A DNA stretch of 39,095 nt from a virus (taxonomy: Duplodnaviria > Caudoviricetes). A program made the position numbers and the translations under genes. The notes under the pieces were generated by a model that saw only the letters and a list, made by a program, of their open reading frames with translations, ran no database searches and was not told where the DNA came from. Below, one piece after another: positions 16,084-36,870 of this stretch (the first letter of the stretch is position 1; each line of letters starts with the position of its first letter). Where the stretch lies: positions 1 through 39,095 of IMG/VR virus record IMGVR_UViG_3300003394_000001; one strand, given 5' to 3'.

Positions 16084-16447
16084 TTATGTCCTCATCGTTA
16101 ACACTGCTTACAGTGGGCGTATTCAAGCCTGTAATGTTGATACTGATCTGAGGTGCTCCACCAGCTTGTTTAGCTGCATCGAACATAGACACAGGGAGGA
16201 TACGATCAACAGCTAACTTCATAGCTGCCATCTGTCCGGGATGTCCGTCAGTCATGGCAATCTCTACCATCTTGTCTAAGATACGACTACCACCGGTGGC
16301 AAGCAATCGTTCCTTGAACTCTTGAAGTCTGGCAGCATCGCCAGCAGGACGACCTACCTTACCTTTGGTTCTGTCCTTCACTGCTTGAAGGTCAGACTTA
16401 GGTGGTCTACCTTTACCTCGTAATTTAGGCTGTACTGTCTCTGTCAT
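16073..16447 (-). CDS. terS: Terminase small subunit (probable start MTETVQ at 16447)
   Basis: GRP-containing basic N-terminus, immediately upstream of TerL, ATGA overlap with the upstream gene. Confidence 0.7.
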   Translation of the reverse strand: MTETVQPKLRGKGRPPKSDLQAVKDRTKGKVGRPAGDAARLQEFKERLLATGGSRILDKMVEIAMTDGHPGQMAAMKLAVDRILPVSMFDAAKQAGGAPQISINITGLNTPTVSSVNDEDIIDV

Positions 16448-16713
16448 ACGGTTGCTTTCTTGCACTCTTTGCAGTAGCTAGAGTAGCCAGAGTAGCTTTT
16501 CTTATCAGCGTAGAAGTCAAACAACTTCTTCTCTTCACCGCACTTAGCACAGGACTTAACACCCTTGCTTAAAGACTCTTTAACAGCTTTCTGCTGTGCG
16601 TACCTACTCTTGTTATATTCCTCACGCTCATCCTGTGGTTTAGACAAATGATGTAAGTGTTCTGTTAAAACCTTAGTTTCTTGAACGTCATACAGACGTG
16701 GTGTGTTTTCCAT
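16444..16713 (-). CDS. Zinc-finger protein (HNH-associated type CxxC..CxxC, no nuclease domain), start MENTPR
   Basis: CAKC.....F....CKEC at the C-terminus; AGAGGA RBS upstream of ATG 16713. Confidence 0.7.
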   Translation of the reverse strand: MENTPRLYDVQETKVLTEHLHHLSKPQDEREEYNKSRYAQQKAVKESLSKGVKSCAKCGEEKKLFDFYADKKSYSGYSSYCKECKKATV

Positions 16714-17029
16714 TTTGATTCCTCTTGAAAAGCTACAGGTGTTCAGACACACGCACCTGTAAACGTGTTTCAAGCCTATCACTAGGTGTCTTTTGTTTGG
16801 TAGACATACCTTAAGTATAGACACCCTGTTAGTTAGACAAAACATCTATGCTTAAAGTACTTTAAAGAAACGTATAAGTTAAGAACTTACTAAGTTAAAT
16901 ATTATAAGTACTTGTTATAAGTATCTGTTAGTAGTTAACTTATACATTCGTTGTATCAACTGTCCAGATTCCTGCTTAGCAACATAAGAGTCCATCACCT
17001 TCTTCGTCACTTCATAGTACAGTATAATA

Positions 17030-21216: not shown

Positions 21217-22807
21217 CAAGTTTCTGAAGCACATCGCCTGTGAGCACTGCGGAAGCACTGATGCGAACTCGCTCTATGATGATGGGCATACACACTGCTT
21301 TAAGTGCGGAACAACCGAACATGAGCATGAAGCTGAAGATAGACACGCCACGAGGCACAACATGGCACGGAAGACCGCGACACCAATGGAAATCAAAGGA
21401 CAATTCAAATCAATCCCTGATCGAGGAATCAGTCAGGCAACCTGTGAAAAGTACGGAGTAACAACCGATGGAGACAACCAATATTATCCTTACACTGACG
21501 CAGCAGGAGTTAGAACGGCTGTTAAACAACGCACTGTTTCTACAAAGAAATTCTCTATCTCAGGAGACTTCAACGGAGCAACTCTATTCGGTCAGTCTCT
21601 CTTTCACGAAGGAGGAAAGGCTCTCACCATCACAGAAGGAGAACTTGATGCTCTCGCAGCTTTCCAGATGCAAGGAAGTCTCTACCCTACAGTGAGCATT
21701 CGCAATGGCGCTCAGGCAGCGTTAAAGGACTGCAAAGCTAACTACGAGTGGATCAACACCTTTGACTCTGTAGTCATCTGCTTTGATGCCGATGAGCCGG
21801 GGAAGAAAGCTGCTAAGGAAGTGGCTGAGTTGTTCGGCAACAAGGCCAAGATCATGCAGTACAAGGACGGATACAAGGATGCTTGTGAATACTTGCAATC
21901 AGGTGCGTCTAAGGAGTTTGTTAATGCTTGGTGGAGAGCTGCTCCTTATGTGCCTGACGGTATTGTTAACGCTGCTGACCTCTGGGAAGAAATCTCCAAA
22001 CCAGAGCCGATTGCAGAGGCTCAGTACCCTTGGGCAGGATTGAATAAGCTGTTGTACGGTATCCGTCCTGCTGAGTTGATTACAGTTACCGCAGGCAGTG
22101 GCTTGGGTAAGAGTCAATTCTTGCGTGAAATACTGTACAATCTGCTGAAGACAACTAGCTGGAACATTGGTGGACTCTTCCTTGAGGAATCTACTCGTAA
22201 GACAGCACGAAGTATCATGTCATTGCACGCTAACAAGCTGTTGCACTTACCTGATACACCTACAACTGAACAGGAATTGAAGGAGGCTTTTGATGCTACT
22301 CTTGGCTCTAATCGTATATACCTTTTTGATCATTTTGGTAGTAGCGATGTGGATAACATTTCTAATCGAATCCGATACATGGCAAAAGCTTGTGATTGCC
22401 GTGTTGTATTTCTCGACCACATTAGCATCGTGGTTAGCGGTCAGGATCTGGGAGATGAGCGCAAAGCTATTGACAACATGATGACAAAGCTGCGTACCTT
22501 GGTACAGGAGTTGAATATCACTCTGATCTGTGTGAGTCATCTCCGTAGGCCTCAAGGCAACCAAGGACACGAGGATGGTGGTAGTGTGTCTCTGTCTCAG
22601 TTGCGAGGCTCAGGTGCTATTGCACAGTTGAGCGATGCTGTGATCACGTTGGAGCGTAATAGCATGGCTGAGAATGAGGATGAACGTCACTTAACCAAGA
22701 TTGCAGTGGCAAAGAATCGGTACAACGGGGAAACTGGCCCTGCTTGTAAGTTACAATACAATGGCTATACTGGACGTATGACTGAAGTTGAGGAGGAAAT
22801 ACTATGA
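21209..22807 (+). CDS. T7 gp4-like DNA primase-helicase (probable GTG start at 21209)
   Basis: Zinc finger CEHC..HCFKC, TOPRIM EGELD and FDADEPG, Walker A GSGLGKS, LDH, SQLRGSG, KNR; AAGGAG RBS. Confidence 0.96.
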   Translation: MTSKFLKHIACEHCGSTDANSLYDDGHTHCFKCGTTEHEHEAEDRHATRHNMARKTATPMEIKGQFKSIPDRGISQATCEKYGVTTDGDNQYYPYTDAAGVRTAVKQRTVSTKKFSISGDFNGATLFGQSLFHEGGKALTITEGELDALAAFQMQGSLYPTVSIRNGAQAALKDCKANYEWINTFDSVVICFDADEPGKKAAKEVAELFGNKAKIMQYKDGYKDACEYLQSGASKEFVNAWWRAAPYVPDGIVNAADLWEEISKPEPIAEAQYPWAGLNKLLYGIRPAELITVTAGSGLGKSQFLREILYNLLKTTSWNIGGLFLEESTRKTARSIMSLHANKLLHLPDTPTTEQELKEAFDATLGSNRIYLFDHFGSSDVDNISNRIRYMAKACDCRVVFLDHISIVVSGQDLGDERKAIDNMMTKLRTLVQELNITLICVSHLRRPQGNQGHEDGGSVSLSQLRGSGAIAQLSDAVITLERNSMAENEDERHLTKIAVAKNRYNGETGPACKLQYNGYTGRMTEVEEEIL

Positions 22808-25390: not shown

Positions 25391-26119
25391 ATGAATGAGC
25401 TGGCTTTATTCTCAGGCGCTGGTGGAGGAATACTTGGAGGAAAACTCCTTGGATGGCGCACAATTTGCGCCGTTGAATGGGGAAAGTATCCAGCAAGCGT
25501 ATTGCTCGCCCGGCAAAATGAAGGACTTCTCCCGCCTTTCCCGATTTGGGATGATGTTCAAACCTTTGACGGAAAACCTTGGCGAGGAATTGTTGACGTT
25601 GTATCTGGAGGATTTCCGTGCCAAGACATTAGTTCAGCAGGCCGAGGCGCTGGAATTGAAGGAGAAAGGTCAAGTATGTGGAAACACATGGCAAGGATCA
25701 TTGGAGAAGTTCGACCAACTTCCGCTTGGATTGAAAACTCCTCTATGCTTGTTAAAAGAGGATTGGGAACCGTCCTTAAAGACTTGGCCGAGATGGGGTA
25801 CAATGCTGAATGGGGAGTGTTTTCAGCAGGAGCCGTTGGAGCAAATCACGAGAGGCAGAGAATTTGGATACTTGCCTACTCCAACTTGTCACAACTCGAA
25901 GGAAGGAGCGTATCCAGCGGAGTATACAAGGAAAACACCGACTTTGGCGACTCACGTTGGTGGCAAGATTCATCCGGAATTCACCGAATGGATGATGGGG
26001 TGGCCGCTAGGATGGACAGGCTTAAAGCCACTGGAAACGGACAAGTACCAAAAGTGGCAGCAAATGCATGGATTAAACTAATGAAACGAATTAAAGAAAA
26101 TAATTGTAACAAACCTTGA
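25391..26119 (+). CDS. dcm: C5-cytosine DNA methyltransferase, catalytic (alpha) polypeptide
   Basis: Motif I LFSGAGG, IV GGFPCQ, VI ENS, VIII RQRIW, X RLKATGNGQVP; motif IX absent. Confidence 0.92.
   Translation: MNELALFSGAGGGILGGKLLGWRTICAVEWGKYPASVLLARQNEGLLPPFPIWDDVQTFDGKPWRGIVDVVSGGFPCQDISSAGRGAGIEGERSSMWKHMARIIGEVRPTSAWIENSSMLVKRGLGTVLKDLAEMGYNAEWGVFSAGAVGANHERQRIWILAYSNLSQLEGRSVSSGVYKENTDFGDSRWWQDSSGIHRMDDGVAARMDRLKATGNGQVPKVAANAWIKLMKRIKENNCNKP
25395..26081 (+). CDS. Overlapping +1-frame polypeptide, putative beta subunit of the C5 methyltransferase
   Basis: 228 codons open entirely inside dcm; carries LPTPT...TPTL and motif-IX-like HPEFTEWMMGWPLGWT. Confidence 0.75.
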   Translation: MSWLYSQALVEEYLEENSLDGAQFAPLNGESIQQAYCSPGKMKDFSRLSRFGMMFKPLTENLGEELLTLYLEDFRAKTLVQQAEALELKEKGQVCGNTWQGSLEKFDQLPLGLKTPLCLLKEDWEPSLKTWPRWGTMLNGECFQQEPLEQITRGREFGYLPTPTCHNSKEGAYPAEYTRKTPTLATHVGGKIHPEFTEWMMGWPLGWTGLKPLETDKYQKWQQMHGLN

Positions 26120-26143
26120 CATGACGTTAAAGTGATGTACAAT
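26116..26143 (+). promoter_or_regulatory. Sigma70 promoter for tRNA/ssb
   Basis: TTGACA-16 bp-TACAAT, 12 nt before the tRNA. Confidence 0.8.
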
Positions 26144-26155
26144 ATTAGGTAAGAA

Positions 26156-26240
26156 GCGAGTGTGGTGGAACTGGTATACACAGCAGACTTAAAATCTGCC
26201 GCCGAAAGGATTGAGGGTTCAAAGCCCTCCACTCGTACCA
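26156..26240 (+). tRNA. trnL: tRNA-Leu (anticodon UAA)
   Basis: Acceptor GCGAGTG/CACTCGT plus ACCA, anticodon arm GCAGA-CTTAAAA-TCTGC, long variable arm, T arm GAGGG-TTCAAAG-CCCTC. Confidence 0.93.
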
Positions 26241-26441: not shown

Positions 26442-26855
26442 ATGGACAACAAACCTGTCAAAGTCTCTGGTCAACTCTTCTGGGCTAATTGGATGAAAGA
26501 GTTCAATACCAAATTTAACAGCGATAATGAAAAGTACGAATGTACTCTGGGTATGCTCTCTGACAAGGCTTGCGAGGCTCTGAAGGAACAAGGCATCGTG
26601 ATTAAGAACAAAGACACAATGGGTAACTACATTGTTGGTAAATCTAAGTTCCTGTTCGAGCCTGTGGACGCTGAAGGTAATCCAGTGGCTATCGAGAAGA
26701 TCGGTAACGGCACTAAGGTGACAGCTCTGGTGGGCTCCTATCGCCACAAGATGAGTGCCAAGTTTGGCTCTGCTCCTTCAATCAGTAAGTTGATCGTTAC
26801 TGACTTGGTTGTCTACGGTGAAGATGCCGAAGGTGATGATGACGACATCCTGTAA
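26442..26855 (+). CDS. ssb: Single-stranded DNA-binding protein (gp2.5-like)
   Basis: 137 aa, KY...L and IGNGTK motifs, acidic tail EDAEGDDDDIL. Confidence 0.85.
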   Translation: MDNKPVKVSGQLFWANWMKEFNTKFNSDNEKYECTLGMLSDKACEALKEQGIVIKNKDTMGNYIVGKSKFLFEPVDAEGNPVAIEKIGNGTKVTALVGSYRHKMSAKFGSAPSISKLIVTDLVVYGEDAEGDDDDIL

Positions 26856-26862
26856 ATAAAGC

Positions 26863-26891
26863 TTGACATTCTCTCTCCAATGTGGTATAAT
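26863..26891 (+). promoter_or_regulatory. Consensus sigma70 promoter of the HNH gene
   Basis: TTGACA-17 bp-TATAAT with extended -10 TGn. Confidence 0.85.
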
Positions 26892-26922
26892 ATTGTTTTG
26901 TTTATATTGTATTGGAGATGAG

Positions 26923-27429
26923 ATGAAGACTGAACGTAAGATTACTAAACGGGACGATAAAGGACGAGTGGTAGAGTTTGTGTTTCTTGTGGACGGAAAA
27001 GAAGTTCCAGAAGGGCAAAAATATTGCAACTCTTGTTCCTCTATCAAAGATATTTCACTTTTTTCTGCTTATGGGAATTCTTGTAAAGAATGTGCTAACG
27101 CTAAATCTAGGGCGTTTTATAGCAAATCTAAACAAAATTCTGAATGGGTTAAAGAAAGAAATGAAAAAACTGCTCGTGACGGTATCGAAAAGAAACAAAG
27201 GGCTGTGGATTATTTAGGAGGTAAATGTCAAGACTGCGGTGGGAAGTTTCCGCTGCCTGTGTATGACTTTCATCACTTAGACCCTACAGAAAAAGAACAT
27301 AACTTAGGAAATATCTTGCGTCGAAAGAATTTTTCTGAAATTGAGAAAGAACTATCAAAGTGCGTTCTTCTCTGCGCGAATTGCCATCGCATCCGTCACT
27401 TTGAAGGAGGTAAAAATGAAGTCAAATGA
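26923..27429 (+). CDS. Free-standing HNH homing endonuclease (start MKTERK)
   Basis: N-terminal CNSC..CKEC zinc finger, CQDC, DFHHLDP...LLCANCHRIRH; AT-rich relative to neighbours; GGAG RBS. Confidence 0.88.
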   Translation: MKTERKITKRDDKGRVVEFVFLVDGKEVPEGQKYCNSCSSIKDISLFSAYGNSCKECANAKSRAFYSKSKQNSEWVKERNEKTARDGIEKKQRAVDYLGGKCQDCGGKFPLPVYDFHHLDPTEKEHNLGNILRRKNFSEIEKELSKCVLLCANCHRIRHFEGGKNEVK

Positions 27430-28186
27430 TCCTAAGATTGCGCTAGTGGACGCTGATTTCCTTTAGCTGGTCTATCGCATCGGATTTTCTACTGAGGACG
27501 AACCCGTGGGCATCGCTAAGGCACGATTAACGGAGTGGTTAGAAGACTTTATCTATGTGAATCTCAAGGCTGACGAATACAAGGCTTGGATTACGGGTAA
27601 AACTAACTACCGTTATGACATTGCCAAGACAGTCCCCTACAAAGGAAATCGTAAGGATGCAGTCAAGCCTAAGCACTACGAAGCCCTACGGGAGCATCTA
27701 GTCAAGCGTCATGGAGCTATCCTTACAGTTGGTGAGGAAGCTGACGATACCGTAGCCATTGCGTCCACGAAGCTGTTAGATCAGTGCTGGATTGTTCATG
27801 TGGATAAGGATCTCGATCAGCTTCAAGGATGGCACTACAACCCTGTTCGAGATGAGAGATACTATGTCGATGAGTTCACAGCGTACAAGTCGTTTGCAAC
27901 GCAACTTCTCACTGGAGATAGGATTGACAATATCCCGTGCTTGGCGGGAATTGGCCCTAAGAAGGCTGAAAAAGCTCTCCAAGACGCAAAGACGAAAGAA
28001 GAACTCTTACGTTGTGCGTGGGAAAAGTATCAAGAACTTGGGCATACGCTGGAGTATTTTACTGAACAAGGACAGCTCTTGTGGCTGAGACGATATGAAG
28101 GAGAATTATGGCAACCGGACGTAAAATTACTGCCAAGCAAGTTGCAACTAAGTACGGATTCCGCAGTGGACTCGAAGAAAGAGTAG
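27416..28186 (+). CDS. 5'-3' exonuclease (T7 gp6/FEN-like) with an in-frame TAG at 27464-27466
   Basis: GGAGG RBS, then ATG 27416 gives MKSNDPKIALVDADFL*LVYRIGFS..., in frame with ORF 27506..28186 (YKGNR, EADD, DKDL, GDRIDNIP..AGIGPKKA). Confidence 0.9.
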
Positions 28187-29813: not shown

Positions 29814-30088
29814 ACAATGAAGACCAAACAGAATACGCTTTCCAGTATACAGACTGTGATGGTAAAGTCTACAGCACTACCATCAACAATCCCGGCCCTA
29901 CGTGGATGGAAGCCTTGGATGACTATGTAAGCTTCCTTGAGTCGGCCTACAAGTATGATATTCGCTCTAAGGTGCGCGTTAAAGAACCTGCGTATCAACG
30001 TATGGTTGAGAATGAACACGGATACATTGATCCTTGGAATGGTGAATACTTCACCGATGACGAAGACTATGAAGTACATGGGTGGTGA
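29810..30088 (+). CDS. Hypothetical acidic protein
   Basis: 92 aa, AAGGAGG RBS. Confidence 0.75.
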   Translation: MNNEDQTEYAFQYTDCDGKVYSTTINNPGPTWMEALDDYVSFLESAYKYDIRSKVRVKEPAYQRMVENEHGYIDPWNGEYFTDDEDYEVHGW

Positions 30089-30090
30089 GC

Positions 30091-30468
30091 ATGCGTAAAA
30101 ACTACGGACACTATGTAGGGAAAACATCGGCTGAATACCATCAAGACTACCGCCTAAGAAAACCCGAACAGTGTCTTCTTTCTTCTGCTCGAAATCGTGC
30201 ACGTAAGAAAGGAATTCCTTTTGATATTACAGTAGAGGATATTATTATTCCTGAATACTGTCCTATCTTAGGGATACCTTTAACACGAAATCTAGGAAGC
30301 CACGGGGGAACATCTTCGTCTGCTAGTTTAGACAAAATAAGCCCCGAACTAGGTTACGTTAAAGGAAACGTACAGGTTATTTCTTTATTGGCAAACAATA
30401 TGAAAAGTAATGCAACCAAAGAGCAGCTTCTTTTGTTTGCTGAATGGATTAAAAAGGAGTACACATGA
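30091..30468 (+). CDS. HNH-like (His-Me finger) endonuclease
   Basis: CPILGIPL...SLDKI.P.LGYVKGNVQVIS..AN.MK; AT-rich. Confidence 0.75.
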   Translation: MRKNYGHYVGKTSAEYHQDYRLRKPEQCLLSSARNRARKKGIPFDITVEDIIIPEYCPILGIPLTRNLGSHGGTSSSASLDKISPELGYVKGNVQVISLLANNMKSNATKEQLLLFAEWIKKEYT

Positions 30469-36372: not shown

Positions 36373-36870
36373 TCACTTACTTCCTTTGCGTAGGTTATCA
36401 ATAGCAGGGATTACTTGCAAGTTTTCTGCTATATGTAATCCTCCTTTAGCGAGAGGGATGATATGGTCAACATGAAAAGATTCTCCTAAAGACATAGCAA
36501 TATAGAAGTCACGTAAAGCATACATCTGAATAATCTCAGGAGTTATATCAGTTCTCAACTGCGCTCTGCGTTTAGCGTTATCAGCGTTAATTCTATTCTT
36601 GTGATCTGCTCTGTCTTTTGCCTTCCACTGTTTAACCTTTTCTGGGTTATCCTGTCTGTACCTATTGTTAGATTCTAGTTTAGACGAGTAATTTCTTTTC
36701 GCATAGTCTGAAGAAATCTTACGGTATTTCTCAGGATTTTCTGCATACTTTTGCTTCTTTACAGAAGCCGTACACTCCTTGCATCGGCTTGCCTTGCCAG
36801 TTGTTGTTCTGACATCTGGACTAAACAAAGCTAATGATTTGGTTAGTTTGCAACAGGAGCAATCTTTCAT
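36373..36870 (-). CDS. HNH homing endonuclease
   Basis: CSCC...CKEC zinc finger; HVDHIIPL..GGLH...NLQ......N..K; AT-rich. Confidence 0.92.
   Translation of the reverse strand: MKDCSCCKLTKSLALFSPDVRTTTGKASRCKECTASVKKQKYAENPEKYRKISSDYAKRNYSSKLESNNRYRQDNPEKVKQWKAKDRADHKNRINADNAKRRAQLRTDITPEIIQMYALRDFYIAMSLGESFHVDHIIPLAKGGLHIAENLQVIPAIDNLRKGSK

Follow-up and report, generated by a model that had tools for sequence, protein, structure and literature searches.

The exonuclease gene of the phage genome analysed here (IMG/VR record IMGVR_UViG_3300003394_000001, 39,095 bases; hereafter the window) is interrupted in its N-terminal motif by an in-frame stop codon, and the CTT-TAG-CTG insertion responsible is confirmed as real. 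Comparison across relatives suggests that the interruption is probably crossed by a peptidyl-tRNA hop over the stop, making the locus a miniature counterpart of the T4 mobA/gene 60 cassette. We lean, by a slight balance, towards the wider proposal that these loci contain the first natural, selected in-frame stop-hop: a ‘translational intron’ of 4–7 bases, repeatedly installed by a family of HNH endonucleases in a flap-exonuclease motif, which would act without RNA structure or peptide signal and be offset by a promoter and Shine–Dalgarno (SD) sequence borne on the cassette.

The window is a complete genome bounded by direct terminal repeats. Its replication block is T7-like and comprises a primase-helicase, a family A polymerase without the 5'-3' exonuclease domain, the exonuclease and endonuclease I. 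Sequencing runs containing this genome carry mostly freshwater labels, and the closest cultured exonucleases, those of Roseobacter CRP-5 and Lentibacter ICBM2, are 40–43% identical. Upstream of the region of interest, a cytosine methyltransferase gene (25391–26119) is overlapped almost end to end by a same-strand frame of 228 codons (25395–26081), and a tRNA-Leu(TAA) gene (26156–26240), kept in 62/62 relatives checked, lies behind an 11/12 promoter match (26116–26143). Three further endonuclease VII/HNH-like genes occur elsewhere, at 16444–16845, 30082–30468 and 36373–36870, with terminase, metallophosphoesterase and holin genes as their respective neighbours.

All features of the cassette lie on the plus strand. 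Directly 3' of the stop of a gene inferred to be SSB-like (26442–26855; no family match) is a predicted, cassette-borne sigma-70 consensus promoter (26863–26891; TTGACA-17-TATAAT, 12/12, with an extended -10). A free-standing HNH endonuclease gene of 168 aa follows (26923–27429), a putative homing endonuclease matching PHROGs phrog_2255 at E 1.7e-29 and without any Pfam match at E 0.001. As the original prediction stated, a strong ribosome-binding site and an ATG at 27416 are in frame with an intact exonuclease: the very strong SD AAGGAGGT (27404–27411) is embedded in the 3' end of the HNH gene, where it codes for FEGG, and precedes 16 codons supplied by the cassette, MKSNDPKIALVDADFL (27416–27463), which encode strand beta-1 and the invariant D-x-D (GAC GCT GAT TTC, 27449–27460). 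The last of these is the putative take-off codon CTT (Leu 16, 27461–27463). Then come the in-frame stop TAG (27464–27466; TGA in some distant alleles), the putative landing codon CTG (27467–27469), between whose second and third base the 3' boundary of the cassette falls, and the intact, recipient-derived remainder of the 5'-3' (flap) exonuclease (27470–28186). Beyond TAG the frame continues as LVYRIGF and stays open until a TAG at 28184–28186, giving 256 codons in all or 254 aa with six nucleotides skipped.

Several observations establish the insertion. A Logan contig of run X1 spans 26700–27697 at a word depth of 33.9 with 0 differences to the window, CTTTAG included; because this run is possibly the source sample, its contig does not count as independent confirmation. 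A pattern search recovered the same L-TAG-L arrangement in 18 other IMG/VR contigs, seven of them with only 60–69% exonuclease identity, and together these records rule out an assembly error. By way of a chance estimate, the pattern CTN-TAG-CTN fits 12 of the 1031 TAGs in the window. When 80 close relatives were retrieved by the downstream protein and two with truncated N-termini were dropped, the motif was free of the two extra codons in 67 of the 78 readable loci, as in DADFLVY, and 11/78 had L-stop-L. Because the motif without the two codons prevails, the change is an insertion and not a nonsense mutation, and the predicted restoration of DADFLVY upon its removal is what the insert-less relatives display. 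Nor are homologues normally two residues longer at this site: in a set limited to 240 related proteins, 221 had the normal three-residue spacing, 18 had no motif match and a single one (P0040) read LQL. P0040 is a gene-caller artefact in which TAG was read as Q, as judged from Q at two further positions where its relatives have TAG; genuine longer spacing was accordingly found in 0/240 proteins, and a nonsense mutation in a longer motif is ruled out. Reassignment of TAG (code 15) was likewise rejected, since the 61 listed genes are open in code 11 except at the exonuclease stop, and relatives use TGA or change frame. Just 3/61 listed genes end in TAG. Compared with the complete genome, the exonuclease gene matches nothing besides itself and is the sole gene of its kind.

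The interrupted gene encodes a protein of the FEN fold. A model of the insert-less relative L002 matches E. coli ExoIX, T5 FEN and T4 RNase H at E values of about 1e-9 to 1e-7, and FEN-type motifs are present, namely the N-terminal beta-strand Asp, EADD, DKD and GD..D; a match to PF02739 begins at residue 6, below the Pfam cut-off. D11 and D13, which directly precede the break, are invariant in 42 insert-less homologues. The first Asp of D-x-D is likely catalytic, as in the FEN family, for which the one support found is the title of the T4 RNase H D19N entry. We also presume, by T7 gp6, that the exonuclease is essential; a literature search for support of this found none.

The insertion is closely tied to the upstream nuclease gene. 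With a GC content of 38% against 46% for the genome, the HNH gene is intergenic and sporadic, occurring in 11/78 close relatives. It ends across the exonuclease start, directly upstream, in 11/11 insert contigs and in 0/67 insert-less contigs, two of which have an unrelated HNH at this place, and matched Leu codons flank the stop in the HNH-bearing close relatives, both as originally predicted. Searches started from the HNH protein found the gap at 17/17 distinct junctions where this protein was at least 55% identical to that of the window, and the HNH clade of the window (nine rows, support 100/99) is wholly insert-bearing. The predicted association does not extend to the whole family, however. 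Among 95 distinct exonucleases, 26 combine insert and HNH, one has the insert without the HNH, 17 have a more distant HNH without the insert and 51 have neither; because these 17 loci, which include the cultured phages Bas93, ECBP2 and PKM.Hi.22.6, are insert-less, not all such nucleases require the insert. The association grows looser with distance; insert state changes about six times on the HNH tree, and an independent-pairs test over the whole exonuclease tree gave a median p of 0.06, short of significance.

At L148 (1501–1683) an apparently truncated HNH gene of about 60 codons stands beside a retained insert and an intact exonuclease, resembling the decayed mobA of T4. At L251 a related HNH (match 2001–2324) lies inside the exonuclease gene, splitting it between query residues of about 85 and 97. 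Unrelated HNH-like genes separate the SSB-like gene from an insert-less exonuclease at L044 (2432–2920) and L069 (1533–2003), and other cargo genes occupy the same slot at L007, L028 and L060. L308 (900–1839) has the insert without an upstream HNH, and its exonuclease is fused after EADD to what appears by eye to be an HNH-AP2-like nuclease, a second invader; this invasion led us to discard the locus as proof that the insert can outlive the HNH in a working gene.

Wider pattern searches combined with HNH-based ones found a stop-containing gap at this motif in 27 viral contigs, nine further metagenome contigs (L132, which is the window itself, and L135, which repeats L083, were left out of the count) and two GenBank phages, that is, in 38 other records whose exonucleases are about 30% to more than 90% identical. 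In the viral-contig pattern scans, 4/22, 6/33 and 1/27 matches were unrelated and were set aside; a scan of bacterial genomes gave 105 matches, 0 of them exonucleases, and 16/213 exonuclease-bearing loci could not be parsed in the locus survey. The six-nucleotide class comprises 26 distinct alleles, with CTT (24/26) or CTG (2/26) at take-off and CTN at landing in 26/26, where insert-less alleles use TTA or TTG in 15/52; the stop is TGA in the distant alleles L162, L237 and L284. Two alleles have seven nucleotides, CTT TAG T CTA in L136, known from one contig, and CTT TGA C CTA in Vibrio phage Phriendly. A four-nucleotide class (L164/L172/L174 and L240, L174 having a further one-base discrepancy) reads CGA TAG Y TAY, with C or T before the Tyr codon. 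Codons of the form CTN thus flank the stop in 26/26 six-nucleotide alleles and in both seven-nucleotide alleles and are unmatched in the four-nucleotide ones; this matching may simply reflect where the cassette ends. Pattern scans allowing any middle codon found a sense codon in place of the stop in 0/18 and 0/26 exonuclease matches. In L284 (1899–2013; PQ867848.1, Zobellviridae) the gap is displaced downstream by one codon relative to the window (CTT CTG TGA CTA TAT) and the annotated exonuclease starts downstream. The N-termini of P0228, P0233, P0160 and P0178 resemble an out-of-frame D-x-D-h-L, a hint of more frame-changing variants of four nucleotides or one. RNA runs X19, X21, X22 and X24 yielded no contig over the cassette, and the two contigs reaching the site are insert-less alleles.

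Phriendly, a phage of V. natriegens, provides a cultured example. Its announcement, which reports three rounds of plaque purification and assembly at 66.7-fold, makes no mention of the gene (PMC6776788). Its locus consists of the HNH, AAGGAGG and 15 codons ending in CTT, followed by TGA C CTA CGT TAT, and the cultured relatives IME271 and VP506 are without the HNH and without exactly these seven bases. No second exonuclease copy was found in Phriendly. The corresponding region (L425:1904–2759, MN062185.1 21263–22121, with the junction at 21308–21317 of that record) carries just two GenBank annotations, a hypothetical protein that is truncated and an HNH fragment of 43 aa, and contains a longer open HNH frame without an obvious ATG start and the exonuclease with its seven-nucleotide gap.

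A promoter match of 11–12/12 at the same spacing is found in most close cassette alleles and is absent from L027, L031 and L212. Median SD pairing energies were -12.9 kcal/mol for 21 insert alleles, -3.3 for 18 alleles with HNH and no insert and -6.6 for 52 plain alleles, a difference that p-values overstate because the alleles compared are mutually related. Counted from the T of TAG, ten close alleles share one sequence between -75 and +4 and begin to differ at +5; beyond the landing codon, 52–57 of 57 bases agree with insert-less alleles. On the 95-row exonuclease tree, insert alleles are scattered, requiring 15 changes, at least eight of them forced by well-supported branches; a single insert clade was rejected on a 34-row subset (p-AU 2e-41). 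Such scatter, together with the sharp end of the cassette, is what repeated homing would leave.

Rate comparisons indicate that the exonuclease gene stays under purifying selection. EADD, DKD and GD..D are retained in a long open frame in 28/30 insert alleles, the exceptions being one cut by a contig end and one invaded by another HNH (L308). Values of dN/dS were 0.01–0.16 in 11 unsaturated insert pairs (two more were saturated at synonymous sites), against 0.06–0.15 in nine insert-less pairs, and the exonuclease part of the window (27470–28186) gave 0.07–0.12 against two insert relatives. This downstream signal may partly be inherited from recently invaded recipients. Across 17 alleles, the last seven cassette-borne codons before the break show pN 0.14 and pS 0.78, the pattern of a sequence conserved as protein.

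No stimulatory structure was found near the stop in 29 alleles. The hairpin proposed as a signal (27446–27475) can be drawn by pairing GCTGA (27452–27456) with TTAGC (27463–27467), but 186/200 shuffled sequences fold as well; its local z ranges from -1.5 to +1.1 in the 29 alleles, and it is lost in distant alleles. The fold z was +1.54 for 27395–27520, upstream values were -1.4 or higher, and a downstream z of -2 or below was reached in only 3/29 alleles.

We propose that the mobile HNH cassette has replaced the exonuclease start by its own 16 codons and stop. A leucyl peptidyl-tRNA would then leave CUU while the A site holds the stop without decoding it, and would pair anew with CUG six bases further along, yielding the full 254-residue enzyme; the hop would presumably be inefficient, its cost met by the consensus promoter and very strong SD. 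The HNH enzyme would nick insert-less exonuclease genes at or near the Leu codon, with repair in mixed infections spreading the cassette, and the inserted bases would likely protect the gene against the nuclease that the cassette itself encodes, conferring immunity where amino-acid changes are not tolerated. Re-pairing is the only process that would by itself restore the ancestral spacing in the four-, six- and seven-nucleotide geometries alike. Its weakest part is the four-nucleotide class, which would need a first-position mismatch (CGA to AGY). The junction peptides predicted from hopping are IALVDADFLVYR for the window and DCDILRYELG for Phriendly.

The main rival would combine readthrough with +1 shifting, the extra residues being tolerated: the stop would be read through in six-nucleotide alleles (L-x-L, 256 aa) and the frame shifted by +1 in the seven- and four-nucleotide ones, leaving one or two added residues after D-x-D in an enzyme active enough to serve. 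Its junction products would be IALVDADFLxLVYR in the window and, after a +1 shift, DCDILDLRYELG in Phriendly. CUU-UGA-C, present in Phriendly, is the +1 frameshift site of the prfB type, and the stops here precede C or U, of which C makes for weak termination. The seven-nucleotide alleles are returned to frame equally well if CUU-stop is the site of a +1 shift, and AlphaFold fits the two extra residues into a loop ahead of helix 1 while the protein stays folded (mean pLDDT 89). We nevertheless judge this explanation unlikely. Turning TAG into a sense codon takes one base change and would supply the same protein in full amount, but is seen in 0/26 alleles, the genuinely longer spacing is missing from all 240 proteins surveyed, and no suppressor tRNA is present in the window. 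Within the readthrough model itself, helix 1 is delayed from the second Asp to residue 17 and local pLDDT falls from 96 to 76. Different alleles would need different mechanisms. Readthrough had been put forward as an alternative in the original prediction, which did not foresee the frame-changing four- and seven-nucleotide variants; because these exist, plain readthrough is not the general rule, and they favour hopping. For the window a +1 shift is excluded, as shifts of +1 and -1 stop after 21 and 10 codons, respectively.

Somewhat less probable still is a dead or dispensable gene, knocked out by a purely parasitic cassette, its function being taken over by host Pol I, ExoIX or RNase H or by co-infecting phages. 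Many lineages have acquired the cassette recently, so that downstream conservation could be inherited, and L308 combines the insert with a second HNH invading the same gene. Against this, the N-terminal copy looks translated, being conserved as protein in the 17 alleles, the SD of the cassette is stronger than that of insert-less alleles, and in the groups in which every sampled member has the insert (L083/L084/L088 and L292/L300) dS reaches 0.5–1.0 with dN/dS of 0.01–0.16 and no breaks. Improbable, too, is removal or recoding of the bases before or outside normal decoding, whether the RNA is cut and religated, the polymerase skips or a phage-encoded factor acts: four to seven nucleotides are too short for a self-splicing element, no structure is shared, and in the reporter-type precedent, phiHau3, the bypass occurs in translation. 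The only tRNA, Leu(TAA), was rejected as a decoding helper because it occurs with and without the insert, in 8/8 insert and 54/54 insert-less loci. We give very little credence to a split enzyme, in which the 16-residue peptide would reassemble with a C-terminal part that has its own initiation, as for the nrdA split by mobE in phage Aeh1, although other HNH insertions offer a precedent in the accessible text of 10.1101/2022.08.31.505936 and PMC2988022. The restart codon suggested for the window, GTG 27506, does exist and has a modest SD (-5.8 kcal/mol), but it is found in 2/30 insert alleles, no start position is shared, and seven alleles have no ATG, GTG or TTG within the first 50 codons. 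A protein restarted there would also be missing the invariant Tyr and the greater part of helix 1, and the cassette adds no dimerization tails.

The proposed hop places the locus beside the T4 mobA element, described in the available portions of the sources (10.1101/2022.08.31.505936; PMC7026636; PMC2988022) as bringing a homologous region for replacement, which finishes with a take-off codon and stop, and an insert that blocks nicking by MobA. As far as those portions describe the T4 cassette, both systems have a free-standing HNH gene, a replacement copy ending in take-off codon and stop, a matched landing codon and an insert tied to the nuclease, with repeated insertion at one conserved site; in both, the gap is absent from relatives and its exact removal restores the ancestral protein. 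The differences, again by the accessible descriptions of T4, are considerable. The gap is six nucleotides here (4–7 across alleles) and 50 in gene 60, the codons specify Leu and not Gly, the gap is in frame, and take-off is at codon 10–16 instead of 46. The host gene is an unsplit flap exonuclease here and, in T4 gene 39/60, a topoisomerase split in two. The take-off stem-loop, 5' stem-loop, 3' barrier and internal mini-SD of gene 60 are unsupported here, and its nascent-peptide stimulator acts about 30 residues before take-off, whereas only 10–16 codons precede the stop here and the nascent peptide is just 10–16 residues long in nearly all alleles. Because it uses another gene, a far shorter gap and none of the stimulators, the cassette would work like that of T4 without being a member of the same system.

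A further parallel is with synthetic stop-hops in E. coli (Weiss 1987, as cited in PMC5009743 and 10.1101/2024.12.09.627546), in which, according to the excerpts available, a stop lies between matching codons and nine bases give one amino acid, as proposed here. Those were low-level laboratory constructs (unstimulated stop-hops are low level in the text accessible from 10.1101/2024.12.09.627546), whereas the present case is natural and conserved, in a conserved motif. The original prediction had pointed to such a classic stop-hop; matched-codon constructs are indeed described in the available part of PMC5009743, but the example it named, CUU UAG CUA, was not found in our literature search. On natural hopping over an in-frame stop, that part of the same 2016 review states that ‘no occurences are known’ (PMC5009743). 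In the phiHau3 terminase, bypass of 10 nucleotides was detected by mass spectrometry in E. coli, as presented in the sections available (PMC10732093). There, too, a short insert (7–10 nucleotides) lies in a conserved phage enzyme motif and is absent from relatives, and bypassing was argued from extra residues unseen in homologues; phiHau3 differs in its trigger, a rare UUA sense codon, and in its proposed regulatory role, and the accessible text mentions no homing endonuclease or HNH. The mitochondrial byps of Magnusiomyces capitatus, as far as the available text of 10.1101/2022.08.31.505936 and PMC5009743 describes them, are likewise mobile inserts made harmless by ribosome jumping, with landing sometimes imperfectly matched, but they are 27–55 nucleotides long and involve an unused sense codon and organellar ribosomes. 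Our literature search, whose scope excluded subscription journals and bioRxiv supplements (those of Manning and Atkins could hold cases), found no report of bypassing in a phage exonuclease, and the accessible portions of PMC12646305, 10.1101/2024.12.09.627546 and PMC2754532 contain no exonuclease case.

Programmed bypassing has been shown for very few genes. If ribosomes hop at these loci, an effect seen in synthetic constructs would be one used in nature, and the natural series of alleles (six, seven and four nucleotides; TAG and TGA; matched and unmatched landing) would amount to a ready-made mutational scan, with Phriendly on V. natriegens, a harmless laboratory host, as a cultured phage in which a direct test is possible. 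The finding also explains annotation errors, the gene being truncated in two GenBank records and given an invented Gln at the stop in one database entry. If the reading is true, the arrangement would be a plausible minimal form for the origin of the T4 gene 60 bypass, and short hops would join introns and inteins as a third general means by which homing nucleases reside in conserved coding sites.
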